NCBI GenBank assembly: GCA_030647955.1
Contig: JAUSIQ010000003.1
Coordinates: 2,111 to 66,110, forward strand
Direction: 5' to 3'
Source: a bacterium
Lineage (GTDB): Bacteria; Patescibacteriota; Minisyncoccia; 2-02-FULL-40-12; IGHO2-12-FULL-4
DNA: 64,000 nucleotides
How positions within the stretch are numbered: the first letter of the stretch is position 1; each line of letters opens with the position of its first letter. This document shows positions 517 through 64,000 of this stretch, in pieces. The notes under the pieces were generated by a model. The model saw nothing but the letters and a program-made list of their open reading frames with translations, had not been told where the DNA came from and did no database searches. Both the position numbers and the translations under genes were made by a program.

Positions 517-545
517 TTGTTAATCGCTGTAAAGCGGGCTATAAT
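517..545 (+). promoter_or_regulatory. Sigma70-like promoter TTGTTA-17-TATAAT upstream of the repeat element and recO
   Basis: TTGTTA (517-522), 17-nt spacer, TATAAT (540-545). Confidence 0.4.
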
Positions 546-563
546 AATAGTAATTTTGCGATT

Positions 564-707
564 GTTCGAGTTCAAGGCAAAAGATGAGTATTGAGCGAGA
601 CGTATATGAATACGGCGAGCTCAAACGGAATCTTTTAACGCAGAAATCGAACAAACCCGAAGGGCTTGAGTCGGTGGCCGTGCTTTAGCCGGCCTTTAAC
701 GACTCAA
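564..707 (+). repeat. Copy 1 of a duplicated conserved element: 70 nt identical to 45739-45808, then a 9-bp-stem hairpin; contains a 34-codon ORF (574-678) starting MSIERDVYEYGELKRNLLTQ
   Basis: Exact 70-nt match to the second copy. Hairpin CTTGAGTCG...CGACTCAAG at 662-707. Confidence 0.6.
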
Positions 708-723
708 GCACAAAATTATTACA

Positions 724-7237: not shown

Positions 7238-8320
7238 ATGGATAAAAAAGGCTCAACCAGAATAGTTTATCATGATGTCTCGGTCTACACCGTCACTAAA
7301 ATAGTGTTGGTTTTGTTGTTTTTCGCTGCTTTGTATCTCTTGCGTGACATTATCTTTATCCTACTTTTTGCCATAATTATCGCCTCCGGAATTACCCCTT
7401 TTGCCAACTGGTTAGACCAGAAAAAATTCCCTCGTATTCTGGGAGTTTTAATTCTCTATCTCTCTCTTTTTGCTTTGGCTCTTTTCTTGCTTTCTTTGGT
7501 AGTGCCTTTTGTGACCGGAGAACTGAACCAGCTCATCAAAGATCTGCCGCGTTTTATCAATCAGGTTTCGAGCTCTCTGGAAAAAGCGCAGGAGAGTTCC
7601 AGTCGGTATGTGGATCTCTTTAGTGAGATCCAAAACCTACTAGACACTTCTGCTGGTTATTTGCAGGCCTCCTCGCAATCAGCCTTTAACTTTGTGATTA
7701 GTATCTTTGGTGGACTATTTTCTTTCTTTGCCGTTATCGTCTTATCCTTTTATCTCTCCGTGATGCGAGGAGGTATTGAAAGTTTCATCCGTTCAATTGT
7801 CCCCAAGGAATACGAAGCGGAAGTGCTCAATGTCTGGCGTCGTTCGGAGAAGAAAGTTGGCAAGTGGCTGCAGGGACAGTTACTTTTGGCTTTGGTAGTG
7901 GGCTTGACAGTGTACGTGACCCTCTCGATTATGGGTATTAAGTTTGCTCTATTGCTTGGTATTGTGGCGATGGTTTTGGAGTTAGTACCGAATGTTGGAC
8001 CAGTACTGGCGGCTATTCCGGCGGTGATCTTAGCTTTTACGCAATCAACGACTTTAGGGATTTGGGTGGTAGTGGCTTATGTGATTATTCAGCAGTTGGA
8101 AAACCATGTCCTAGTGCCGATTGTGATGGGTCGCGCGGTAGGGCTTAATCCGGTGGTGGTAATCTTGGCCTTATTGATCGGTTTCCACTTGGCTGGGATT
8201 GTTGGGATGATTTTATCGGTCCCAGTAGCGGCAATTATCGTCGAAATTCTAGATGAATTTTCTAAACATCGCTACCATGCGGGAACGGAAGTAGTAACGC
8301 CGGAGAGCAACAATGGCTAA
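7238..8320 (+). CDS. AI-2E family transporter (PerM/UPF0118) membrane protein
   Basis: Multi-TM protein with the conserved C-terminal region ...ELVPNVGPVLAAIPAV...QQLENHVLVPIVMG. Confidence 0.7.
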   Translation: MDKKGSTRIVYHDVSVYTVTKIVLVLLFFAALYLLRDIIFILLFAIIIASGITPFANWLDQKKFPRILGVLILYLSLFALALFLLSLVVPFVTGELNQLIKDLPRFINQVSSSLEKAQESSSRYVDLFSEIQNLLDTSAGYLQASSQSAFNFVISIFGGLFSFFAVIVLSFYLSVMRGGIESFIRSIVPKEYEAEVLNVWRRSEKKVGKWLQGQLLLALVVGLTVYVTLSIMGIKFALLLGIVAMVLELVPNVGPVLAAIPAVILAFTQSTTLGIWVVVAYVIIQQLENHVLVPIVMGRAVGLNPVVVILALLIGFHLAGIVGMILSVPVAAIIVEILDEFSKHRYHAGTEVVTPESNNG

Positions 8321-12473: not shown

Positions 12474-14813
12474 ATGAAGTATAATCCCTCCAAAATTGAA
12501 AAAAAATGGCAGAAGACTTGGTTAAAAGAAGGAGTCTACGAGCCGAATTTTAAAAATCCCCGAGAGAAGGGTAAATTTTATAATCTAATGATGTTTCCTT
12601 ATCCTTCGGCCGAAGGGTTACACGTGGGAAATATGTACGCCTTCACGGGCAGTGATATTTACGGCCGCTTCAAGAGAATGGCGGGGCACGATGTTCTGGA
12701 GCCGATCGGGTTGGATGGTTTTGGGATTCACTCTGAAAATTACGCTATCAAAGTTGGAACGCATCCGGCGGATCAGACTAAAAAAAGCGAGAAAAACTTT
12801 TATCGCCAGCTGACGGAAATTGGCAATGGTTTTGCCTGGAAAGAAAAACTGGAAACTTATGATCCCGAATATTACAAATGGACGCAATGGCTTTTCATCC
12901 AAATGTTTAAAAACGGTTTGGTTTATCGCAAGAAGCAGCCGGTCAATTGGTGTCCTTCGTGTAAGACGGTTTTGGCGGACGAGCAGGTTATTCTTGCCCA
13001 TCGAAACCTTGGCGAAGTTGGGGGCGGAGAGTGTGAGCGGTGTGGAACGAAAGTAATTAAAAAAGATTTGGAGCAGTGGTTTTTCAAAATTACCGATTAT
13101 GCGGAGAGGCTTTTGAATAACTTGGAAGATATTGATTGGTCGGAAAAAATTAAAGTGGCCCAAAGAGCCTGGATTGGGAAAAGCGAAGGAGCGCTTTTGA
13201 AATTTTCGATTGCTAAATCTCAATCTGTTATCGATGTTTTTACGACCAGGGCAGATACTTTATACGGCGCAACTTATATGGTTTTAGCTCCAGAGCACCC
13301 TTTGGTTAATGAGCTTAAGTCGCAAATTACGAATTGGGATGAGGTGCAGGCTTATCGAGAAAAGGCCAAAGGCAAAACCGATATCGAGCGTACCGCGGAG
13401 GGCAAAGAAAAAACCGGTGTGGAACTGAAGGGAATCAAAGCGATTAATCCTGCCAATAATCAGGAAATTTCAGTGTGGATTGCGGATTATGTTTTAGCTG
13501 GTTATGGAACGGGAGCAATTATGGCGGTGCCTCAACACGATGAGCGGGATGCGGAATTTGCTAAGAAATTTGATCTGCCGTTCAGTGATGCGCCGTTAGT
13601 AGCTGTGGACGAAATTGTTAAAAAAGTTAGCGGCAAAAAAATTACGCAATATAGGTTACGTGATTGGTTGATTAGTCGTCAGCGCTATTGGGGTCCGCCC
13701 ATTCCGATGATTCATTGCGAGAAATGTGGCTGGCAGCCCGTACCGGAAAAAGATTTGCCTGTGAAGCTTCCTAAAATTGAAGATTTCAGACCAACCGGAA
13801 CCGATCAGTCTCCGTTAGCTTCGGTTGAAAAATTCTATAAAACGAAATGTCCAAACTGTAAGGGTGAGGCTCGAAGAGAAACGGATGTTTCCGATACTTT
13901 CTTGGATTCCGCGTGGTATTACCTACGTTATCCTTCAGCGAATCACAAAGAAGAAGCATTCGACCCTGACGTTACGAAAAAGTGGTTGCCGGTAGATATG
14001 TATATTGGTGGAGCGGAGCATGCCGTTTTGCATTTGCTCTATGTGCGCTTCGTGGCTATGGCTTTGCATGATTGGGGATTCTTAAATTTCGAGGAGCCGA
14101 TGACGCGCTTCCGAGCTCACGGACTGATCATTAAAGATGGAGCGAAGATGTCCAAGTCCAAGGGTAACGTGGTTAATCCCGATGAATATATTAAAAAATA
14201 TGGAGCGGATGCCCTGAGAATGTATCTAATGTTTTTAGGACCATTTGAACAGGGTGGTGATTTTCGCGATGAAGGCGTGGCCGGAATTACCCGCTTTTTG
14301 AACCGAGTATGGGCGTTAATAGATAAGGTGCAGAAAGAGGATGTCGCTGAAATTCAAAAAACGCTTCATCAAACTATTAAAAAAGTTACTGAAGATATCG
14401 AAGGCCTGCATTACAATACGGCTATTAGTCAGTTGATGATTTTGCTGCGAGAGATAGAGGATGTGGAAGTGATTTCTAGGTCGCAGTTCGAAATGGTCTT
14501 AAAGCTTTTGGCTCCTTTCGCCCCGCATATCACGGAAGAAATTTGGCGGACGGTATTAAAGAATAAAAAATCAATTCACCTGGAAGCGTGGCCGGAGTAT
14601 AACACTAAACACTTGGTAGAGAAGACGGCTAACCTGGTACTGCAAATTAACGGGAAAACTCGAGAGGTCATGGTTGTTGACCGGGATTTGTCTGAAGCTC
14701 AAGTAAAGGAGCTGGTTTTAGCTTCGGAAAAAATGCAAAGACATTTGGACGGGAAGACTATTAAGAAGTTTATTTACTTACCAAATCGATTGGTCAATAT
14801 TGTGACGGAGTGA
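12474..14813 (+). CDS. leuS: Leucyl-tRNA synthetase
   Basis: PYPSAEGLHVGN (HIGH-like), KMSKSKGN, LeuRS editing and zinc-finger regions. Confidence 0.9.
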   Translation: MKYNPSKIEKKWQKTWLKEGVYEPNFKNPREKGKFYNLMMFPYPSAEGLHVGNMYAFTGSDIYGRFKRMAGHDVLEPIGLDGFGIHSENYAIKVGTHPADQTKKSEKNFYRQLTEIGNGFAWKEKLETYDPEYYKWTQWLFIQMFKNGLVYRKKQPVNWCPSCKTVLADEQVILAHRNLGEVGGGECERCGTKVIKKDLEQWFFKITDYAERLLNNLEDIDWSEKIKVAQRAWIGKSEGALLKFSIAKSQSVIDVFTTRADTLYGATYMVLAPEHPLVNELKSQITNWDEVQAYREKAKGKTDIERTAEGKEKTGVELKGIKAINPANNQEISVWIADYVLAGYGTGAIMAVPQHDERDAEFAKKFDLPFSDAPLVAVDEIVKKVSGKKITQYRLRDWLISRQRYWGPPIPMIHCEKCGWQPVPEKDLPVKLPKIEDFRPTGTDQSPLASVEKFYKTKCPNCKGEARRETDVSDTFLDSAWYYLRYPSANHKEEAFDPDVTKKWLPVDMYIGGAEHAVLHLLYVRFVAMALHDWGFLNFEEPMTRFRAHGLIIKDGAKMSKSKGNVVNPDEYIKKYGADALRMYLMFLGPFEQGGDFRDEGVAGITRFLNRVWALIDKVQKEDVAEIQKTLHQTIKKVTEDIEGLHYNTAISQLMILLREIEDVEVISRSQFEMVLKLLAPFAPHITEEIWRTVLKNKKSIHLEAWPEYNTKHLVEKTANLVLQINGKTREVMVVDRDLSEAQVKELVLASEKMQRHLDGKTIKKFIYLPNRLVNIVTE

Positions 14814-20158: not shown

Positions 20159-20291
20159 TGTGCTCGAGGTGGGACTTGGCTTCGACTCTCGGCTCGCCGC
20201 CGCTCGCCTCGGTCTAGCCACCGCCTCGCGGTCCCTCAAGCTTTCGGGACAGCGCTCCGGCGTTCAAGTCCCAGCACAAATAAAAAGTTAT
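20159..20291. repeat. GC-rich (~62%) 130-bp element bounded by a 20-nt exact direct repeat of the tRNA-Leu 3' end (20159-20178 = 20292-20311) and an inverted degenerate tRNA T-arm copy (20262-20278)
   Basis: Exact 20-mer TGTGCTCGAGGTGGGACTTG appears twice. GTTCAAGTCCCAGCACA matches the T-loop/3' end with a 6-nt deletion. GC is far above the local level. Confidence 0.5.
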
Positions 20292-20293
20292 TT

Positions 20294-20376
20294 GTGCTCG
20301 AGGTGGGACTTGAACCCACAAGGTCGTGAGACCACACGATTTTGAGTCGTGCGTGTATGCCATTCCACCACTCGAG
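20294..20376 (-). tRNA. tRNA-Leu (anticodon CAA), type II with long variable arm, CCA not encoded
   Basis: Reverse complement folds as GCTCGAG/CTCGAGC acceptor, anticodon loop CUCAAAA, variable arm TGGTCTCACGACCTTGT, T-loop GGGTTCAAGTCCC. Confidence 0.85.
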
Positions 20377-20634: not shown

Positions 20635-21396
20635 GTGGCACGCATCATAAACATCTGTAACGAAAAAGGTGGAGTTGGTAAGACCACCACCACTATTAAC
20701 TTGGCTGCTTATCTTGCTGCTCTGGGAAAGTATGTTTTGGTTGTTGATCTTGACCCCCAGGCTAATGCTAGCGGTGGTTTGGGAGTGAAGGTAGCAGATG
20801 ATCATCTCAATATTTATCACTCTCTGGTGGGAAACGAAAGTCCAGGTTCTTATTTGAGAAAAACTGCTTTGTTCGGCTATGATCTTTTGCCAGCTTCGGC
20901 TAGTTTAGCTGGGGCGACGGTGGAATTGGTGAGTGTGGAGTCTAGAGAGTTTCGTTTAAAGAAGGCCCTCAACTCTATTCGTACTAATTACGATTACATT
21001 TTGATTGATTCTCCTCCTTCATTGGGCTTGCTGACCATTAATGGCTTGGCAGCCGCTGAAGAAGTTATTATTCCGGTGCAGTGTGAGTATTTTGCGCTCG
21101 AAGGATTGGGAAATTTGTTGCAAACCATTGAATTGGTACGCTCTTCTTTAAATCCACAATTGAAAATCGCCGGAGTATTGCTTACAATGTATGATAAGAG
21201 GAACAGATTAGCGCGCGCGGTAGTGAAAGAAGTGCAAACCAATTTTCCCGGCAGAGTTTTTGAAGCAGTTATTCCGCGTTCCATTTCTTTAGCGGAGGCT
21301 CCGAGTTTTGGAAAAACTATTTTACAATTCGATCCAGGTTCCAAAGCCGGCCGGGCTTATCGGCAATTAGCGGAGGAAGTTGTTAGAATAATCTAG
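20635..21396 (+). CDS. parA: Chromosome partitioning ATPase ParA/Soj
   Basis: Deviant Walker A ICNEKGGVGKTTTTINLA; GTG start. Confidence 0.9.
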   Translation: MARIINICNEKGGVGKTTTTINLAAYLAALGKYVLVVDLDPQANASGGLGVKVADDHLNIYHSLVGNESPGSYLRKTALFGYDLLPASASLAGATVELVSVESREFRLKKALNSIRTNYDYILIDSPPSLGLLTINGLAAAEEVIIPVQCEYFALEGLGNLLQTIELVRSSLNPQLKIAGVLLTMYDKRNRLARAVVKEVQTNFPGRVFEAVIPRSISLAEAPSFGKTILQFDPGSKAGRAYRQLAEEVVRII

Positions 21397-21478
21397 TTTA
21401 TCAAGTTTATAATGTTATAAAGTTTGTAAAGTTAAAATCTCTGACTTTAAAAACTTTACGAACTTGATGAACTTTTAA
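21397..21478. repeat. AT-rich palindromic intergenic element (family member A) between parA and parB
   Basis: Arms ATCAAGTTTATAA...TTTGTAAAGTT and AACTTTACGAACTTGATGAACTT are reverse complements; same motif family as copies at 31468, 47333, 47904, 57480, 59009, 59505. Confidence 0.7.
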
Positions 21479-31203: not shown

Positions 31204-31467
31204 ATGGACGTCAAAAGACGACCGAATGAAACAATCGGCAGTGCTTTACGAAGATTTTCTAAACTGGTTCAACAGAGCCGGCTTTTGAATAAAGCAAAAG
31301 CCTCTCGTTTCTACAAAAAGAAAGCGAGCGATCGACAAGATAAGAACCGCGCTATTATGCGTGAAGAGTTAAGAGCTCTCCGCAAGCGTTTAGAAAGACT
31401 GGGTAAGTACGACGATGAAACTTTTGAAGAAGAGAAGAGAAAAGTTAAACAAAAACTAGATCTATAG
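31204..31467 (+). CDS. rpsU: 30S ribosomal protein S21
   Basis: MDVKRRPNETIGSALRRFSKL...RFYKKK matches the S21 pattern. Start reassigned to ATG at 31204, preceded by AAAGGAGG; the tracked ORF start at 31105 is upstream of the RBS. Confidence 0.7.
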   Translation: MDVKRRPNETIGSALRRFSKLVQQSRLLNKAKASRFYKKKASDRQDKNRAIMREELRALRKRLERLGKYDDETFEEEKRKVKQKLDL

Positions 31468-31556
31468 TTCATCAAGTTCATAAAGTTTGTAAAGTTCATA
31501 AAGCAAGAGAAATGCGAACTTGATAAACTTGAGAACTTTATAACTTGATAAACTGT
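31468..31556. repeat. AT-rich palindromic intergenic element (family member B) between rpsU and yqeY
   Basis: TTCATCAAGTTCATAAAGTTTGTAAAGTTCATAAAG ... AACTTGATAAACTTGAGAACTTTATAACTTGATAAACT arms. Confidence 0.7.
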
Positions 31557-44846: not shown

Positions 44847-45734
44847 TTACTTTTTAGCCGTCAGAGACTTTTTCTCTTGGGCCATGCGGTCTAAAATACT
44901 TCTTAGCATTACATAGGCCTGATCTTCGTGTCGAAAATTAGTCGAAATATTCTCCTTGCCTTTTAGTATACCTTGAATCAAAGTGAGAGCGGTGGTTAGT
45001 TTTTTACTTGCTTCCCCGGAAGAGAAAGGAATGAGTCGAGCTAATTGCAATCCGATTTCTTCTAAAAACTGTCTTTGTACTTGATGAGTGGCTAGTTCTT
45101 CTCTTTTGTTTTCTACAGATAGCTCTAATAAACTTTGATATGTTTTGGTGTCGGCTGCGAGCACTACGCGAGGGATGTGCAGTAGAGGCTCTTTGAAATC
45201 TTCTTGCGCTTCGGATTGAAAGTATTTCACTGTGCTTAATCTGCCTTCCTCGACTTCCTTCTTAATTTTTAATAATTTGCCGGTGAGATATTCTTCGTCT
45301 TCGGTGGAAGCCACATCTATCGCTAAAGCTAAGCGAGAAACGCCATCGTGATCTACTAGCTCAATTACCAGATCTACTCCATTGGCGATATCATCATAGG
45401 TCGATGTTTTTACGGTAAAGGCGTTGTCCCCAAACCAGTTATTTAATTCACTTTGTACGAAGATGAGAGCTTCTAGAATTTTCCCCCTTCGATTTCTTGA
45501 TCTTTCTTGTTGATTAAACTTGCCTTGCCGATCGGCTACATAGGCCTGATCGTGAGCAATCTCTTTAGCTGGATATTTGTCTTCAAATTTGCGGATATCA
45601 ATAGCGGCTTCTTCTGCTTGTAAAACAAAAGCCTCGTAGGCCTTTGTTTCGAGCTCTTCTAGATGAGCCCTTCTTTCCGCTGGCAAAAGTTTTTCACCCA
45701 TATTAAGTGTTAAAAACCTTTGTATTTGTCCCAA
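44847..45734 (-). CDS. Hypothetical acidic protein (295 aa), co-oriented with rpmB and tRNA-Pro
   Basis: Long ORF; no recognisable motif. Confidence 0.45.
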   Translation of the reverse strand: MGQIQRFLTLNMGEKLLPAERRAHLEELETKAYEAFVLQAEEAAIDIRKFEDKYPAKEIAHDQAYVADRQGKFNQQERSRNRRGKILEALIFVQSELNNWFGDNAFTVKTSTYDDIANGVDLVIELVDHDGVSRLALAIDVASTEDEEYLTGKLLKIKKEVEEGRLSTVKYFQSEAQEDFKEPLLHIPRVVLAADTKTYQSLLELSVENKREELATHQVQRQFLEEIGLQLARLIPFSSGEASKKLTTALTLIQGILKGKENISTNFRHEDQAYVMLRSILDRMAQEKKSLTAKK

Positions 45735-45738
45735 GTCT

Positions 45739-45885
45739 AAGGCAAAAGATGAGTATTGAGCGAGACGTATATGAATACGGCGAGCTCAAACGGAATCTTT
45801 TAACGCAGGAATTGGGCAAACCTGAAAGGCTTAAATTCCGTAGAGCCCTATATCTTCGGGCTCCGGAATTTAAGTGCAGAGGTTT
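45739..45885 (+). repeat. Copy 2 of the duplicated conserved element (70 nt identical to 564-633, ~27 nt more at ~75%), followed by a different 11-bp-stem hairpin
   Basis: Exact match; hairpin GGCTTAAATTCCG...CGGAATTTAAGTGC with inner GAGCCC/GGGCTC stem. Confidence 0.6.
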
Positions 45886-45888
45886 TTA

Positions 45889-46068
45889 TTATTTGGTAAG
45901 AGTTTTGATGCAAGAGGTGCAAATGCGTAGGCGAGTACCGTCAATCATGGCCCACTGGAGATTGGGACTCTTTTTATAGCGATTTACTGGATTATAATTA
46001 CCACGCAATAGTTTGCGCTTGTTTGCCATCATCGATTTTTTGCCGCATTTGGGACAACGGTTGGCCAT
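45889..46068 (-). CDS. rpmB: 50S ribosomal protein L28 (zinc-ribbon form), 59 aa, absent from the ORF track
   Basis: Minus-strand translation MANRCPKCGKKSMMANKRKLLRGNYNPVNRYKKSPNLQWAMIDGTRLRICTSCIKTLTK fits the L28 pattern (C..CGK...GN...R..PNLQ...) with a Cys4 ribbon. Confidence 0.7.
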   Translation of the reverse strand: MANRCPKCGKKSMMANKRKLLRGNYNPVNRYKKSPNLQWAMIDGTRLRICTSCIKTLTK

Positions 46069-46920: not shown

Positions 46921-47334
46921 ATGCCGACATTTAACCAACTATTAAAGAAACCCCGCAAGAAGCTTAAGGCGAAGACTAAGTCGCCGGCTTTGGCGCACAG
47001 TTTTAACACGGTTTTGAATCGTCCGGTTTTCCATGATTCTCCTTTTAAGCGTGGTGTGGCCTTGAGTGTTAAGACCACCACTCCCAAGAAGCCGAACTCT
47101 GCTTTAAGAAAAATCGCCCGCTTGCGTCTTACTAATGGTATGGAAGTGACCGCTTACATTCCCGGAGTAGGACACAATCTCCAAGAGCACTCTGTTGTCA
47201 TGATTCGTGGTGGAAGAGTTAAGGATTTGCCTGGTATTCGTTACCACATTGTCCGTGGCGTTTTAGACTCGTCCGGAGTAGAGGGTCGCAAACAAGAGAG
47301 AAGTAAATACGGAGCCAAACGGCCGAAAAAATAA
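46921..47334 (+). CDS. rpsL: 30S ribosomal protein S12
   Basis: [14 protein letters not shown]...; S12 signature throughout. Confidence 0.95.
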
Positions 47335-47424
47335 GTTCATCAAGTCCATCAGGTTATAAAGTTCATAAAGTGGAAAACAAATTATAGAACTTTAAAAACT
47401 TGATAACTTTACAAACTTTTAACT
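47333..47424. repeat. AT-rich palindromic intergenic element (family member C), overlapping the rpsL stop codon
   Basis: AAGTTCATCAAGTCCATCAGGTTATAAAGTTCATAAAGTGG...AACTTTAAAAACTTGATAACTTTACAAACTTTTAACT; 92 nt identical to copy D. Confidence 0.75.
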
Positions 47425-47430
47425 ATAGTC

Positions 47431-47898
47431 ATGCGCAGACCAATAAAGAAAAAGAATTTCCAAGAGCCAGATACCAAATACTCCAGCATGCTGGTGGCTC
47501 GTTTGATTAACCAAGTCATGCAAGCGGGAAGAAAGACTGTGGCGCGTCGCTTGGTTTACGGAGCAATGGAAGTGGCTGCAGAAAAATTAAAGAAACCGGC
47601 TTTGGAAGTCGTTGAAACTGCTTTAGAAAATGCCGGACCACAACTAGAACTGCGCTCTCGCCGTATCGGTGGAGCGAATTATCAGGTTCCTTACGAAGTA
47701 CGGGGAGATCGCCGGGTCACCTTGGCTTTGCGTTGGATCGTTGGGTCTGCTCAAAATCAGAAGGGGAAGGGTATGCAGGAAAAGTTAGCCGAAGAACTCA
47801 TCAATGCTGTTAATAATACTGGTAACGCGGTTAAAAAGAAGCAAGACATGCATCGCATGGCGGAAGCCAATAAGGCTTTTGCTCACTTTGCCTGGTAA
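47431..47898 (+). CDS. rpsG: 30S ribosomal protein S7
   Basis: S7 signature. Confidence 0.95.
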
Positions 47899-47903
47899 AT
47901 AAC

Positions 47904-47996
47904 CAAGTTCATCAAGTCCATCAGGTTATAAAGTTCATAAAGTGGAAAACAAATTATAGAACTTTAAAAACTTGATAACTTTACAAACTTTTAACT
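47904..47996. repeat. AT-rich palindromic intergenic element (family member D) between rpsG and fusA; identical to C
   Basis: 92-nt identity with 47333-47424. Confidence 0.75.
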
Positions 47997-57479: not shown

Positions 57480-57543
57480 AGTAAAGCTGCCAAAAGGAAT
57501 CTTACTTTATGAACTTGAAGAACTTTATAACTTGATAAACTAG
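57480..57543. repeat. AT-rich palindromic intergenic element (family member E, shorter, opposite orientation) between rpsQ and rplN
   Basis: Contains ACTTTATGAACTTGAAGAACTTTATAACTTGATAAACT, the reverse-complement orientation of the AAGTTCATAAAGT unit. Confidence 0.6.
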
Positions 57544-57546
57544 TTT

Positions 57547-57912
57547 ATGATTCAATTACGATCCATCGTTACTGTAGCAGATAATAGCGGAGCCAAAAAA
57601 GTTGGTGTCTTTAAGGTATTGGGCGGAACTCGCAAGCGCTATGCTCAACTGGGCGATGTCGTCGTGGTATCCGTTAAAGAAGCGGAGCCCCGTAAGCAAG
57701 TTAAGAAAAAAGATGTCTTACGAGCGTTAGTGGTTCGTCAGCGACAAAACTTCCGACGAGCAGATGGTAGTTATGTGCGCTTTGATGAAAACGCGGTTGT
57801 AATTTTAGAAGGTAAGGAGCCCAAGGGAGGAAGAATTTTCGGTCCCATTCCTCGTGAGATTAAAGAGCGCGGCTATGATACGATTGCTTCCTTAGCCCAA
57901 GAGATTGTCTAA
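57547..57912 (+). CDS. rplN: 50S ribosomal protein L14
   Basis: L14 signature. Confidence 0.95.
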   Translation: MIQLRSIVTVADNSGAKKVGVFKVLGGTRKRYAQLGDVVVVSVKEAEPRKQVKKKDVLRALVVRQRQNFRRADGSYVRFDENAVVILEGKEPKGGRIFGPIPREIKERGYDTIASLAQEIV

Positions 57913-58822: not shown

Positions 58823-59008
58823 ATGGCGAAAGAATCAACTAAGGCGCGAGCCAAAAAGAAACCCAAATATTCCAGCCGGATTGTCCGACGCTGTTTTATC
58901 TGCGGAAGAAAATACGGTTATATGCGCAAGTTCGATTTGTGTCGTATGCATTTCAGAGAATTGGCTAGTGAAGGATTGCTGCCAGGTATTACAAAATCAT
59001 CTTGGTAA
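58823..59008 (+). CDS. rpsZ: 30S ribosomal protein S14 type Z (zinc-binding)
   Basis: 61 aa, CFICGRK...CRMHFRE, ends ...SSW. Confidence 0.9.
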   Translation: MAKESTKARAKKKPKYSSRIVRRCFICGRKYGYMRKFDLCRMHFRELASEGLLPGITKSSW

Positions 59009-59097
59009 GAGAAGTTCATCAAGTTTATAAAGTTATAAAGTTCATAAAGTAGAAGGATCAAGTCTTAAAACTTTACGGACTTTTCACTTTATAAACT
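59009..59097. repeat. AT-rich palindromic intergenic element (family member F) between rpsZ and rpsH
   Basis: GAGAAGTTCATCAAGTTTATAAAGTTATAAAGTTCATAAAGTAGAA...AAAACTTTACGGACTTTTCACTTTATAAACT; near-identical to G. Confidence 0.75.
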
Positions 59098-59105
59098 ATT
59101 CCGCT

Positions 59106-59504
59106 ATGTATATTGTTTCCGACATGTTAATAAGAATCAAAAACGCGCAGGCGGCTCGAAAAGAGCGGCTTTTGATTCCGTTCTCCAAGATGAAATGGGA
59201 GATTGCCAAAGTCCTTAAAGAGGCGGGCTTTATTCAAGACTTTGAGAGAAGAAAAAAGAAAATAAAAAAGACCGAGCATGCTTTTATTGAAGTTAAGTTG
59301 GAGGTAACGGCAGGAGATGTGGCTATTTCTGAAGTAAAAATTATCAGCAAACCATCGAGACGGGTCTATATCAAAAAGAGTGAAATTCGACCAGTCTTAG
59401 GAGGTTATGGCATCGCGATTCTCTCTACTCCGAAAGGAGTAATGACGGGAGAAGAAGCCAAGAAGAATAACTTAGGAGGGGAATGGTTAGCTGAGATATG
59501 GTAA
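59106..59504 (+). CDS. rpsH: 30S ribosomal protein S8
   Basis: S8 signature. Confidence 0.95.
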   Translation: MYIVSDMLIRIKNAQAARKERLLIPFSKMKWEIAKVLKEAGFIQDFERRKKKIKKTEHAFIEVKLEVTAGDVAISEVKIISKPSRRVYIKKSEIRPVLGGYGIAILSTPKGVMTGEEAKKNNLGGEWLAEIW

Positions 59505-59603
59505 GAGAAGTTCATCAAGTTTATAAAGTTATAAAGTTCATAAAGTAGAAAGATCAAATCTTAAAACTTTAAAAACTTTACGGACTTTTCACTTTATAAA
59601 CTA
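59505..59603. repeat. AT-rich palindromic intergenic element (family member G) between rpsH and rplF; equals F plus a 10-nt internal duplication
   Basis: Differs from F by 3 single-nucleotide substitutions plus the 10-nt insertion AAAACTTTAA; the preceding TGGTAA (last codon + stop) is also shared with the rpsZ junction. Confidence 0.75.
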
Positions 59604-61549: not shown

Positions 61550-62809
61550 ATGGAGCGTTTGCTAAAAATTTTCAAAATCAAAGATCTCCGCTACAAAATT
61601 CTCTTTGTGGTGGGTATTTTGGTAGTTTCTCGTATTGCTTCGACTATTCCGATTCCCAGTGTGGATGCGGATCGTTTGCGTGAATTCTTTGCCAATAACC
61701 AACTCTTCGGTTTGATCAGTACGTTTACGGGCGGAGGATTAGCCACGCTTTCGGTGGCCATGTTAGGACTCGGTCCTTACATTACCGGTTCGATTATTAT
61801 GCAGTTGTTGACGATGGTCTTTCCTCCTTTAGAGCAGATGTATAAATACGGAGGAGAAGCAGGACGCGCTAAATTTAATCAATTCTCTCGAATGCTGACA
61901 GTGCCCTTAGCTTTCTTGCAAGGCTATGCATTTATTTCTTTGCTAGCTCGGCAAGGAGTACTGCAGCCTTTGTCTATGGGGCAGTGGGCGAGTTCGCTTT
62001 TGGTAGTAGCCGCTGGGGCGGTGTTCTTGATGTGGTTAGGAGAATTGATCACGGAGAAGAATATTGGCAACGGTATTTCTTTATTAATCTTCGCCGGTAT
62101 TGTTTCCGGTTTTCCGGCCAGCTTTAGTCAGACCTTATCTATTTTCGATCGTTCTCAATTATTTATGTATATCGGATTTGCCGCAGTGGCCCTAGTGGTT
62201 ATCGCTGGAGTAGTCTACTTAACGGAAGCACAGAGAAATATTCCCATTAACTACGCTAAAAAAGTTCGTGGATCCAAAGTTTATGGAGGAGTGTCCACTT
62301 ACTTGCCGATGCGCGTGAATAACGCCGGAGTTATGCCGATCATTTTCGCTTTATCGATTCTGCTCTTTCCGGGCATGATTGCTAACTTCTTTGCCAACTC
62401 TTCGGTGAGCTTTATTAGTAATCTGGCCAACTTCTTCAATAGTTTTATTCAGAACCAGTTTTTTTATAGCTTGGCTTACTTCATTCTTGTGGTGGTCTTT
62501 ACTTACTTTTACACTGCCGTCACCTTTGATCCCAAGTCTATTTCCGAAAATATTCAAAAGCAGGGCGGCTATATTCCTGGAATTAGACCGGGTCAGGCCA
62601 CCACTCAATTCTTGGAACACTTGCTTAATCGTATTACCTTAGTGGGGGCCGTCTTTCTGGGTATTATCGCTATCTTGCCGAATATTGTACAGGCTTTCAC
62701 CGGTATTACTGCCTTTACGGTAGGAGGTACCTCAATATTGATCGTAGTGTCGGTGGTGCTGGAAACGATGAAGCAGTTAGACGCCCAGATCTCAATGTAC
62801 GAGTACTAG
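61550..62809 (+). CDS. secY: Protein translocase subunit SecY
   Basis: 10-TM SecY signature. Confidence 0.95.
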   Translation: MERLLKIFKIKDLRYKILFVVGILVVSRIASTIPIPSVDADRLREFFANNQLFGLISTFTGGGLATLSVAMLGLGPYITGSIIMQLLTMVFPPLEQMYKYGGEAGRAKFNQFSRMLTVPLAFLQGYAFISLLARQGVLQPLSMGQWASSLLVVAAGAVFLMWLGELITEKNIGNGISLLIFAGIVSGFPASFSQTLSIFDRSQLFMYIGFAAVALVVIAGVVYLTEAQRNIPINYAKKVRGSKVYGGVSTYLPMRVNNAGVMPIIFALSILLFPGMIANFFANSSVSFISNLANFFNSFIQNQFFYSLAYFILVVVFTYFYTAVTFDPKSISENIQKQGGYIPGIRPGQATTQFLEHLLNRITLVGAVFLGIIAILPNIVQAFTGITAFTVGGTSILIVVSVVLETMKQLDAQISMYEY

Positions 62810-62823
62810 GAACCTTTGCGATA

Positions 62824-62866
62824 AAAAACCAGAAGCCCCGAAGATTAGGGGCTTTTCTGGTTTTTT
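62824..62866 (+). terminator. Strong intrinsic terminator after secY (AACCAGAAGCCCC-GAAGATTA-GGGGCTTTTCTGGTT plus TTTTTT)
   Basis: 15-bp stem and T-run seen directly. Confidence 0.8.
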
Positions 62867-63139
62867 CTCCCTAAAGGGTTTGCTCCATTTCTTTGTTAAA
62901 ATCTCCGTCTGAGACTCACCGTACTAACGTACGTTTCGTCTCAATACTCGATTTTGCCGCGAACTGGAGCAAACGCAAAGGTTCTGATGATTCTCAATAC
63001 TGGATTTTAGGCAAACGAGAAAATTTTTAGAAATTAGTCTCGATCATCACTGCTCATAATTTACGTGTAAATATTTCTCATAATTTAGATTTTTTTCATT
63101 GAAAATAAGGCCGAAAGGGCCTTTTTTTCATCTTCATTT
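62867..63139 (+). ncRNA. Candidate small structured RNA/non-coding spacer between the secY terminator and a second terminator (AAGGCC-GAAA-GGGCCTT plus TTTTT at 63117-63139)
   Basis: 10-bp long-range stem GGTTTGCTCCA...TGGAGCAAAC (62879-62975), inner GAGAC/GTCTC stem, then its own terminator; no ORF. Confidence 0.25.
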
Positions 63140-63187
63140 TCGGTTCATTATGAGGGCCTATTATGAGGCCACGAGGGTATATACCCC

Positions 63188-63216
63188 TTGACAGCACTGT
63201 TATAAGGGTTTATAAT
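63188..63216 (+). promoter_or_regulatory. Perfect sigma70 consensus promoter TTGACA-17-TATAAT driving the GC-rich downstream gene
   Basis: TTGACA 63188-63193, 17-nt spacer, TATAAT 63211-63216; SD GAGAAGGAGA then ATG at 63275. Confidence 0.55.
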
Positions 63217-63274
63217 ATATAGATGAGTAGTACCTTGCATAACTAGCATCCCCAACGGGGGAGAAGGAGACGGT

Positions 63275-64000
63275 ATGAAGTTCTGGATTTCAGCAGTTTT
63301 GGTCGCTTGTTTGGTCCTCCCAGTGGGGATGGTCCAGGAAGCGGCTGCGCAGGTGCAGGCCAAGAAAGCGGCTCCGGTGAAGAAGAAAACGACCCTCAGG
63401 AGGGTTGTTGCACCCGAGCTTCCGCTTAACGCCTACGAGACGTACTCGGAGTGCGAGCAGGCGCTCAAGCAGAAGAGGGGCTATTACGTGCCCACCTTCT
63501 TCGGAGAGAGAGGACGGAAGCCGAAACGGCCCGTGGCCTCCACAAGGGCTTTGGAAGCGGATGGTTGCGCCTATCTAAAGGTAGCCGGCGGAATGTACGC
63601 CTGGGTACCTCAGAAGAAGGGGACGCTTTACGACTATGATGCCGAGTATCATCCGATTCGTCGGCATGATTGCGGCAATTCTGTCGTGGAGATTCGCTAT
63701 CCTAAGGCCGAGCCGGTGTTAAGAGCGATTGTGGCTGCTGAGGCCGAGCCTCGTGCTGAAGCAGAGCCTGTGCCACCTGCCGAGGCTCCGCCTGTCTTCA
63801 CTTCCACGCCGGCTGTACCGGTGAAGGTGAGGCAGGATGGAGTGGTCAACATTGTTGGAAATAACAACGAGGTTGACTTCAGGAGCATTAAGGTCATTGA
63901 ACGAGTCCATCCGGTTGTCGTAGAAAGGCACGGTATGTCTACCGGCACCAAATGGGTGATTGGCGGTGTCGCGGCCGGCATCGTTGGTGGGCTCGTGTAC
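63275..64000 (+). CDS. GC-rich (~58%) secreted/membrane hypothetical protein, 3'-truncated by window end; likely horizontally acquired
   Basis: ORF open from ATG 63275 to window end (>241 codons). Signal peptide MKFWISAVLVACLVLPVGMVQEAAAQ; C-terminal hydrophobic segment; Ala/Pro/Glu-rich linker. Codon usage unlike the rest of the window. Confidence 0.5.
   Translation, partial: MKFWISAVLVACLVLPVGMVQEAAAQVQAKKAAPVKKKTTLRRVVAPELPLNAYETYSECEQALKQKRGYYVPTFFGERGRKPKRPVASTRALEADGCAYLKVAGGMYAWVPQKKGTLYDYDAEYHPIRRHDCGNSVVEIRYPKAEPVLRAIVAAEAEPRAEAEPVPPAEAPPVFTSTPAVPVKVRQDGVVNIVGNNNEVDFRSIKVIERVHPVVVERHGMSTGTKWVIGGVAAGIVGGLVY

Follow-up and report, generated by a model that had tools for sequence, protein, structure and literature searches.

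The duplicated 70-nucleotide sequence of a Parcubacteria contig is the conserved arm of a dispersed, folded RNA element

Why does a bacterial genome carry the same 70 nucleotides, letter for letter, in two unrelated gene contexts? This question is raised by a 64,000-nt stretch of contig JAUSIQ010000003.1 (assembly GCA_030647955.1, positions 2,111 to 66,110), hereafter the window, in which one copy of the sequence stands before recO and the other beside rpmB. The window is part of a 67.7-kb contig with the locus tags Q7S32_, and its host is a Yanofskybacteria-like member of the Parcubacteria: the closest SecY is 87% identical (Logan contigs), and the named matches at 72-79% include Parcubacteria group bacterium and Candidatus Yanofskybacteria. 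The 70-mer belongs, as the conserved long arm, to a folded RNA element of ~175 nt, which is present in three copies in the window and on at least five metagenome contigs. The element represents a family that is not in Rfam, of a known general kind, the dispersed structured RNA elements. We give a probability of roughly 55% to the reading that the element acts as RNA on the given strand, as a stable small RNA with paired termini that is probably a protein-binding scaffold.

The 70-mer occurs exactly twice in the window, at 574-643 and 45739-45808, on the plus strand both times and with no mismatch, and shuffled sequence contained no such repeat. An earlier description made without database searches (the sequence-only reading) had reported the exact duplication and placed the second copy correctly, but the first copy lies 10 nt higher than the 564-633 given there. 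Ungapped homology between the two copies extends over 99 nt (569-667 against 45734-45832, 92% identity), with weaker similarity for another ~20 nt upstream of it, and the ~75% similarity reported beyond the 70-mer was recovered as 75% over the following 24 nt. A long hairpin follows both copies as described, with the structure kept and the sequences unrelated; its position in copy 1 is 664-709 and not 662-707. Stretches of 146-150 nt from copies 1 and 2 fold with z scores of -5.6 and -6.0 against shuffles.

Two direct repeats 45,165 nt apart might also be the attL and attR sites of an integrated element spanning 574-45808, or a duplication artefact of the assembly, which the sequence-only reading had named as a possible refutation. 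Neither is credible. An independent Logan contig of the same organism (RecO 100% identical) begins at window position 614, 29 nt before the end of the 70-mer, as explained by branching of a k=31 assembly graph at a true repeat, and relatives have the genes flanking copies 1 and 2 in the same order on either side; an artefact is thereby ruled out. The interval between the repeats holds housekeeping genes (ProRS, MetRS, LeuRS, HisRS, ParA/ParB, RelA/SpoT, TopA, DprA, FtsA/FtsZ, ribonucleotide reductase, ComEC, and others), and its annotation shows no integrase, transposase or reverse transcriptase. In addition, similarity flanks the 70-mer on both sides, the whole module being duplicated, and a third copy and five foreign copies exist.

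These further copies were found by several routes. Low-stringency blastn against the window detected a third copy (~62876-62983, 77% over 106 nt, E = 1e-14), and a covariance model built from copies 1 and 2 (R1) found exactly three copies in the window and nothing else (E = 1e-30, 1e-30 and 5.5e-15). A DNA pattern taken from the positions invariant in the three window copies, GAGTATTGAG-N29-31-ACGGA-N2-3-TTTTAAC, led to five metagenome contigs (L009-L013). All five match the entire 87-nt core at 58-94 bits, 22 core positions of these homologs being fixed by the search pattern itself. The element is the sole sequence that they have in common, and they share no genes with the window. Thus, the search for further copies that had been suggested gave a third window copy and five metagenome loci. 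Two subfamilies, A and B, coexist in one genome; copies 1 and 2 belong to subfamily A, as do L010 and L012, while subfamily B includes copy 3, L009, L011, and L013.

The comparison with Rfam that had likewise been suggested yielded no family for the element. None of the copies matched Rfam 15, even at E <= 10, at which copy 1 gave nothing and copy 2 gave microRNA noise only. At the gathering score the window gave 2 tRNAs only, and the matches on the homolog loci were all elsewhere on these contigs (RNase P, 16S, tRNA). Literature searches found no description of the element, blastn against a phage database found no match to it, and scans of viral contigs with the peptide codon pattern and with structure-based patterns gave 0 matches in four. 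A RecO-based locus search of GTDB genomes found no relatives.

Each of the eight sequences, when folded alone by unconstrained minimum free energy (MFE) prediction, gave the identical architecture. It is a four-way junction of a closing helix (H1), a long arm (H2-H2b-H3), a mini-hairpin, and a hairpin named H5. H1 pairs the 5' end with the 3' tail. The long arm is irregular and consists of H2, the 3-bp H2b, and H3, which is the hairpin within the 70-mer; H3 has four helical segments and conserved G/A-rich internal loops (GAGUA opposite ACGGA, GARN opposite GYGA). The mini-hairpin, CCY-GAA-RGG, has three base pairs, and H5 is a hairpin of 45-60 nt with a semi-conserved loop of approximately UAAAUCUU, for which a by-eye search for a tertiary pairing partner found no consistent complement. 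In the L011 copy, H2b and H3 are separated by an additional module of ~48 nt made of small hairpins, which shows that the junction accepts insertions, as is often the case in structured RNAs.

The fold is kept while its sequence changes, and every helix covaries. Immediately beyond the 70-mer, copies 1 and 2 differ in the two strands of H2, which change together (UUGUUCGA/UCGAACAA in copy 1, UUUG-U-CCCAA/UUGGGCAAA in copy 2, and GUUUGCUCCA/UGGAGCAAAC in copy 3). Counted in alignments of 7-8 sequences that had been fitted to the models, the 5' domain has 30 pairs with 97% of cells paired, 10 of the 30 being changed on both sides, and the 3' domain has 20 pairs with 96% of cells paired and 17 of the 20 changed on both sides. 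For neither domain did any of 500 shuffles reach the observed value, and controls with slid partners were 28-46% and 27-55% paired, respectively. The stability of H1 exceeded that of shuffled flanks in five of the seven complete copies (p = 0.0005 to 0.04), copy 3 folds with a z score of -5.96, and in 7 of 8 copies the fold of the sense strand is better than that of the antisense strand. Conservation is not confined to paired positions: 19 of 31 unpaired internal columns are invariant, compared with 35 of 57 paired ones, while the apical loop varies freely. The compensatory changes that the sequence-only reading had proposed to look for in the hairpins are therefore present. Such changes support a common secondary structure, as in structured non-coding RNAs generally. 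The coordinates of the copies and their helices are given in Table 1.

Table 1. Positions of the element copies, their parts, and associated features. Coordinates refer to the window; R1, R2, and R3 are model scores; loci with the prefix L lie outside the window.
Feature	Position	Strand	Remarks
Sigma-70-like promoter TTGTTA-17-TATAAT	517-545	+	10/12 consensus matches; just 5' of copy 1
Copy 1, whole unit, subfamily A	548-721	+	MFE four-way junction; R2 128 bits, R3 36 bits; H1 p = 0.02; order ileS, element, recO
Copy 1, H1	548-558 (5'), 711-721 (3')	+	
Copy 1, H2	562-569 / 647-654	+	
Copy 1, H2b	571-573 / 643-645	+	
Copy 1, exact 70-mer	574-643	+	junction AAGGC, entire H3 arm, junction AACGCAG
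Copy 1, H3	579-636	+	
34-codon open reading frame	584-688	+	judged spurious: unconserved, without protein homologs
Copy 1, mini-hairpin	656-664	+	
Copy 1, H5	664-709	+	
Copy 2, whole unit, subfamily A	45711-45888	+	R2 135 bits; R3 87.6 bits; H1 p = 0.0005; rpmB / hypothetical gene, antisense
Copy 2, H1	45711-45722 / 45877-45888	+	
Copy 2, H2	45725-45734 / 45812-45820	+	
Copy 2, exact 70-mer	45739-45808	+	
Copy 2, H3	45744-45801	+	
Copy 2, mini-hairpin	45821-45829	+	
Copy 2, H5	45830-45876	+	followed by UUUUUAUUAUUU
Copy 3, whole unit, subfamily B	62810-62984	-	R1 62.7 bits, E = 5.5e-15; R2 76.7 bits; secY convergent
Copy 3, H1	GAACCUUUGCG 62984-62974 / CGCAAAGGUUC 62820-62810	-	H1 p = 0.0015
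Copy 3, core	62960-62874	-	
L012 copy			groEL, element, pyrG
L011 copy			uvrB, element, rpsT
L009 copy			tRNA divergent, ftsX convergent
L010 copy			transketolase side, convergent
L013 copy			aldolase side, divergent
A+T-rich repeat family	21385-21474, 31458-31554, 47326-47424, 47898-47996, 57497-57548, 59003-59083, 59499-59588		

The sequence-only reading had also reported a 34-codon open reading frame (ORF) that starts in copy 1. This frame does exist, at 584-688 instead of the reported 574-678, but as a peptide it is not real, since it is unconserved. The case for a duplicated small-protein gene is the ATG placed 6 nt after AAGG in copies 1 and 2. This ATG sits inside the H3a stem, and at its position four of the eight sequences, which are those of subfamily B, have UCG or UUG, copy 3 having an in-frame TGA as well. 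L012 and L010 keep the ATG and reach a stop after 8 codons (MSIERAVY* and equivalent), and the frame of copy 2 runs for 76 codons, into the antisense of rpmB. The substitutions in the tail between copies 1 and 2 are mostly non-synonymous, and nucleotide changes compensate one another in stems instead of being synonymous. A HMMER search of the 34-aa peptide against 1.84 billion protein representatives returned one spurious TPR-repeat match only. No record matched the 34-aa product exactly, and genome, metagenome, and viral contigs gave no match to a degenerate codon pattern encoding the peptide. A small-protein gene is thus extremely improbable; the comparative data refute the peptide, and the frame is an accident within the folded element.

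With the peptide, the leader-peptide attenuator is refuted as well, and a cis-acting leader of any type, whether attenuator or riboswitch, is very unlikely to explain the element. Such a leader would serve the downstream gene, recO at copy 1, and it would fit with the same-strand genes that start 0-11 nt after the unit in three of the eight copies (recO, pyrG, rpsT) and with the 3' strand of H1 located where the ribosome-binding region would be. These genes are functionally unrelated, and the other five copies have no downstream gene on the sense strand. The folds show one structure, with no conserved terminator/antiterminator alternative, and no Rfam riboswitch was matched even at E <= 10. 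The attenuator-like leader before recO that the sequence-only reading had suggested was not upheld, because the same module stands 5' of pyrG, of rpsT or of no gene, and recO of relatives has no leader. Its suggestion of a small RNA is reasonable, and its view of a functional or mobile module, rather than of protein-level conservation, is supported.

H5 resembles an intrinsic (Rho-independent) terminator in copies 2 and 3, where it is a G+C-rich hairpin with a U-run and, in copy 3, ends the secY operon; a terminator scan recognized it there as a canonical bidirectional terminator (stem-loop 62831-62856, U6). A U-run after H5 is found in copy 3, copy 2, and L012, and none in copy 1, L009, L010, and L011. 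The view of H5 as a mere terminator was not supported, since it is a covarying domain of a larger fold with a semi-conserved loop, and four of the seven complete copies have no U-tract. Among known self-cleaving ribozymes (twister-sister, hairpin, and others), no Rfam model was matched.

The eight loci have eight unrelated neighbor contexts. The units are always intergenic, with a stop codon 0-3 nt or a start codon 0-11 nt away. Copy 1, between the 3' end of ileS and recO, sits between the -10 box of recO (TATAAT, 540-545) and its ATG at 724. The promoter-like TTGTTA-17-TATAAT had been placed correctly by the sequence-only reading, and its position is orthologous to that of the recO promoter in relatives (TTGTAG...TAAAAT in L004, TAAAAT in L003). 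In antisense, copy 2 occupies the space between rpmB (45889-46068, minus strand), whose stop it adjoins, and the gene for a hypothetical protein of 284 aa, with tRNA-Pro beyond, which confirms the operon context reported earlier. Copy 3 adjoins the secY stop codon (62807-62809) and has a G+C-rich gene on its other side. Near this copy, a second hairpin with T-runs on both strands lies beyond it, seen from secY, at 63107-63123, and the plus-strand gene starting at ~63275 has 55-59% G+C, compared with ~40% elsewhere in the window, a signal-peptide-like start, and no Pfam match. The region 62810-64000 represents a variable island or else a breakpoint of rearrangement behind secY.

Around the metagenome copies, a divergent tRNA gene lies ~60 nt 5' of the L009 copy (1525-1595 of that contig), where a 68-aa ORF is spurious. 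At its end (7798-8002), the L010 contig carries the 3' portion of a 16S rRNA gene. In L012 (2100-2268, minus strand), pyrG changes reading frame ~35-45 codons after its ATG, which reflects either a sequencing indel or a pseudogene.

Comparison with relatives indicates that the window copies are new. The ileS-recO spacer measures 14 nt in L003 and ~50 nt in L004, with the element absent, and in both a TAAAAT -10 box stands 6 nt before the recO ATG, which points to a leaderless recO there. The distance from the rpmB stop to the next ATG is 5-10 nt in L005 and L006 and 187 nt in the window, and what comes after secY in L007, L008, and L014-L017 is adk-map or unrelated sequence, again with no element. 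Absence from all three sites in relatives marks the window copies as recent, lineage-specific, intergenic gains. In another relative (L002, 2938-3152), the ileS-recO spacer is 215 nt of unrelated sequence, in which a TAAAAT -10 box is followed by a near-perfect hairpin of ~63 nt (AGATCTTGTGTAAACCAA...TTGGTTTACAAAAGATCT) directly before the recO ATG; the gap between promoter and ATG was therefore hit independently by another hairpin element. Homology of this spacer to the element, at which a YEY..LTQ peptide resemblance hinted, was rejected after alignment and covariance models showed none.

If the element acts as a stable RNA, its conserved non-Watson-Crick loops would bind a protein partner, as tandem G/A loops are typically sites of protein or tertiary contacts. 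It would be transcribed from whichever promoter sits just upstream; promoter-like sites are found within 20 nt upstream on the sense strand of copy 1 and L012 (both 10/12) and of L009 (9/12). At copy 1 this would be the native recO promoter, and if it fires, the element would form the 5' leader of a recO mRNA that is leaderless in relatives. H5 might double as a terminator in copies 2 and 3, bidirectionally for secY in the latter. New copies might arise via duplication into short intergenic spacers.

Several observations weigh against this interpretation. The promoter scan found no promoter-like site at L010, L011 or copy 2, and copy 2 lies antisense inside an operon with no convincing promoter. 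The predicted transcription start of copy 1 falls a few nucleotides inside the 5' strand of H1, and the U-tract of copy 3 precedes the 3' strand of H1, so that a terminated RNA would be without this helix. The pair counts come from model-fitted alignments of few sequences, as noted above, and 9 of the 19 invariant unpaired columns are due to ascertainment by the search pattern. REPIN-type DNA repeats, too, are known to change in a compensatory manner. Furthermore, the element is absent from all three syntenic sites in relatives whose SecY is 79-87% identical, no gene neighbor is conserved, and the covariance models found no copy in ~114 kb of relatives' DNA, which fits a selfish repeat equally well.

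Such a repeat is the alternative that deserves the most attention, and we regard it as possible, though rather unlikely. The element would then be a selfish non-autonomous palindromic repeat, similar to REPINs, BIMEs or miniature transposable elements with inverted repeats (MITEs), whose hairpins act as single-stranded DNA while the RNA is incidental; the mobilising enzyme would be encoded elsewhere, and the identity of copies 1 and 2 would reflect recent transposition. The gains at all three window sites relative to relatives agree with this, as do the tight wedging between genes in either orientation with unrelated neighbors at eight loci, the inverted repeat formed by the ends, and the inconsistent promoters and terminators among copies. 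A second, AT-rich dispersed repeat family in the same window and other repeated intergenic elements in a relative (z = -12 to -14.5) also point in this direction. In contrast, the terminal inverted repeats are not conserved, copies 1 and 2 having UAGUAAUUUUG and UAAAAACCUUUG despite their identical core, and conservation peaks in the internal loops, the reverse of MITEs and REPINs. No target-site duplication is visible in the flanks of copies 1-3, where the divergence of the empty sites in relatives prevents exact placement of the insertion junctions. No transposase, integrase, Y1/RAYT or reverse transcriptase was found among the ~45 annotated window genes or beside the five other copies, and two old subfamilies persist side by side. 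The RNA and selfish-repeat readings are compatible and not mutually exclusive.

REPINs and REP-BIMEs are dispersed palindromic intergenic repeats of proteobacteria, with REP units of 20-40 nt and a conserved head recognized by RAYT. The element resembles them in being multi-copy, intergenic and hairpin-forming, in either orientation and often at gene ends as terminator or stabiliser, in its gain and loss between relatives, and in a hairpin kept through compensatory change. It differs in its length of ~175 nt, four-way junction, conserved internal loops, and variable termini, and no RAYT was found in the window. MITE families keep the sequences of their terminal inverted repeats and make target-site duplications. 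With MITEs such as the Neisseria Correia elements, the element shares a length of 100-200 nt, pairing ends, gene-adjacent insertion, and a predicted transcription into neighboring mRNAs; its termini differ between copies, however, and by the MITE criteria the sequence of the H1 strands is unconserved with only the pairing kept, and no flanking direct repeat was seen.

Among RNA genes, paralogous small RNA families with concerted evolution offer a parallel in their several copies per genome, shared core, divergent terminator hairpins, and core identity maintained through gene conversion. From one relative to the next, such paralogous genes normally stay at their loci and under their promoters, whereas the copies of the element keep neither. 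Covariation, conserved loops, and occurrence mainly in metagenomes are features of orphan structured non-coding RNA motifs (e.g., Weinberg et al., 2017); compared with these, the element is multi-copy with recent intergenic gains in a reduced genome of the candidate phyla radiation (CPR), and has no Rfam 15 model. Group II intron domain V, IS110 bridge RNA, TnpB omega-RNA, and retron msr/msd were considered and dropped, as the required neighbor gene (a reverse transcriptase, recombinase or TnpB) is absent or no Rfam match exists. The integron attC was dropped for the wrong motif polarity, and 6S, SRP, and 5S RNA for the lack of an Rfam match.

The identity of the cores of copies 1 and 2 bears on how the copies evolve. 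In structural alignments the two copies differ at 0 of 64 central columns, 13 of 43 columns of the leader and H2, and 27 of 48 columns of H5. Flanks that have diverged by 30% and 56% are too different for a recent duplication or transposition of the whole element, which speaks against the selfish repeat in its simple form. Copy 1 differs from L012 and L010, at similar flank divergence, by 5 and 7 of the 64 central columns; given 5-7 expected differences, the chance of zero is ~0.001-0.007 by our own Poisson estimate. The simplest account of these sequence differences would be that the cores were homogenised by gene conversion between the paralogs or by recombinational exchange of the core.

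It is also conceivable, although we consider it doubtful, that the element represents a novel type of mobile RNA gene, in which the unit of propagation is the folded transcript, spreading into transcribed intergenic spacers of reduced CPR genomes. Its ends would then be set by the closing helix, with unconserved termini and no target duplication. It may even be a self-cleaving or processing RNA that frees the downstream message, for example the near-leaderless recO mRNA 2 nt after H1. It may also form part of a broader, modular superfamily that includes hyper-structured intergenic elements of Parcubacteria such as L016 12752-13300.

L016, a Parcubacteria relative (GCA_964580765.1), contains two copies of a different element of ~250 nt (2740-2975 and 12752-13003), one between rplB and rpsS and one after map. 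This element is closed by a 13-bp helix, contains long, nested stems (z = -14.5), and has no Rfam match. Next to it, at 13005-13300, a hyper-structured spacer of ~280 nt (z = -12) lies upstream of a glycosyltransferase gene and contains GUUUGUCCAAGUUCAA, which is the 5' strand of H2 with the junction of the present family, as well as GUCCCGAUU...GGAUCC...AAAUCGGGAC, which is the insertion module of L011. These shared modules hint at a wider modular superfamily.

Two other repeats were observed in the window. A second dispersed family, unrelated to the element, is made up of A+T-rich arrays that repeat a unit of ~9 nt (AAGTTCATA and variants), each array being followed by its inverted complement; the copies of this family occupy spacers in or beside parAB, S21, rpsL-rpsG-fusA, and ribosomal-protein operons, and pairs of copies are 94-97% identical. 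In addition, the 3' end of tRNA-Leu(CAA) is duplicated exactly over 20 nt (20159-20178 and 20293-20312), 134 nt downstream of the gene, and may be what an old integration at this tRNA left behind.

The genomes of CPR/Patescibacteria are small and tightly packed, and their non-coding RNAs are almost unexplored. Here, a covarying fold of ~175 nt occurs in several copies and two subfamilies and has been newly placed between essential genes (ileS/recO, rpmB, secY). Where such spacers are annotated, short ORFs and "terminators" can belong to a single RNA, and repeats of this type break assemblies. The element may be an unrecognized component of a ribonucleoprotein, or a new style of selfish structured repeat that is tolerated by reduced genomes.

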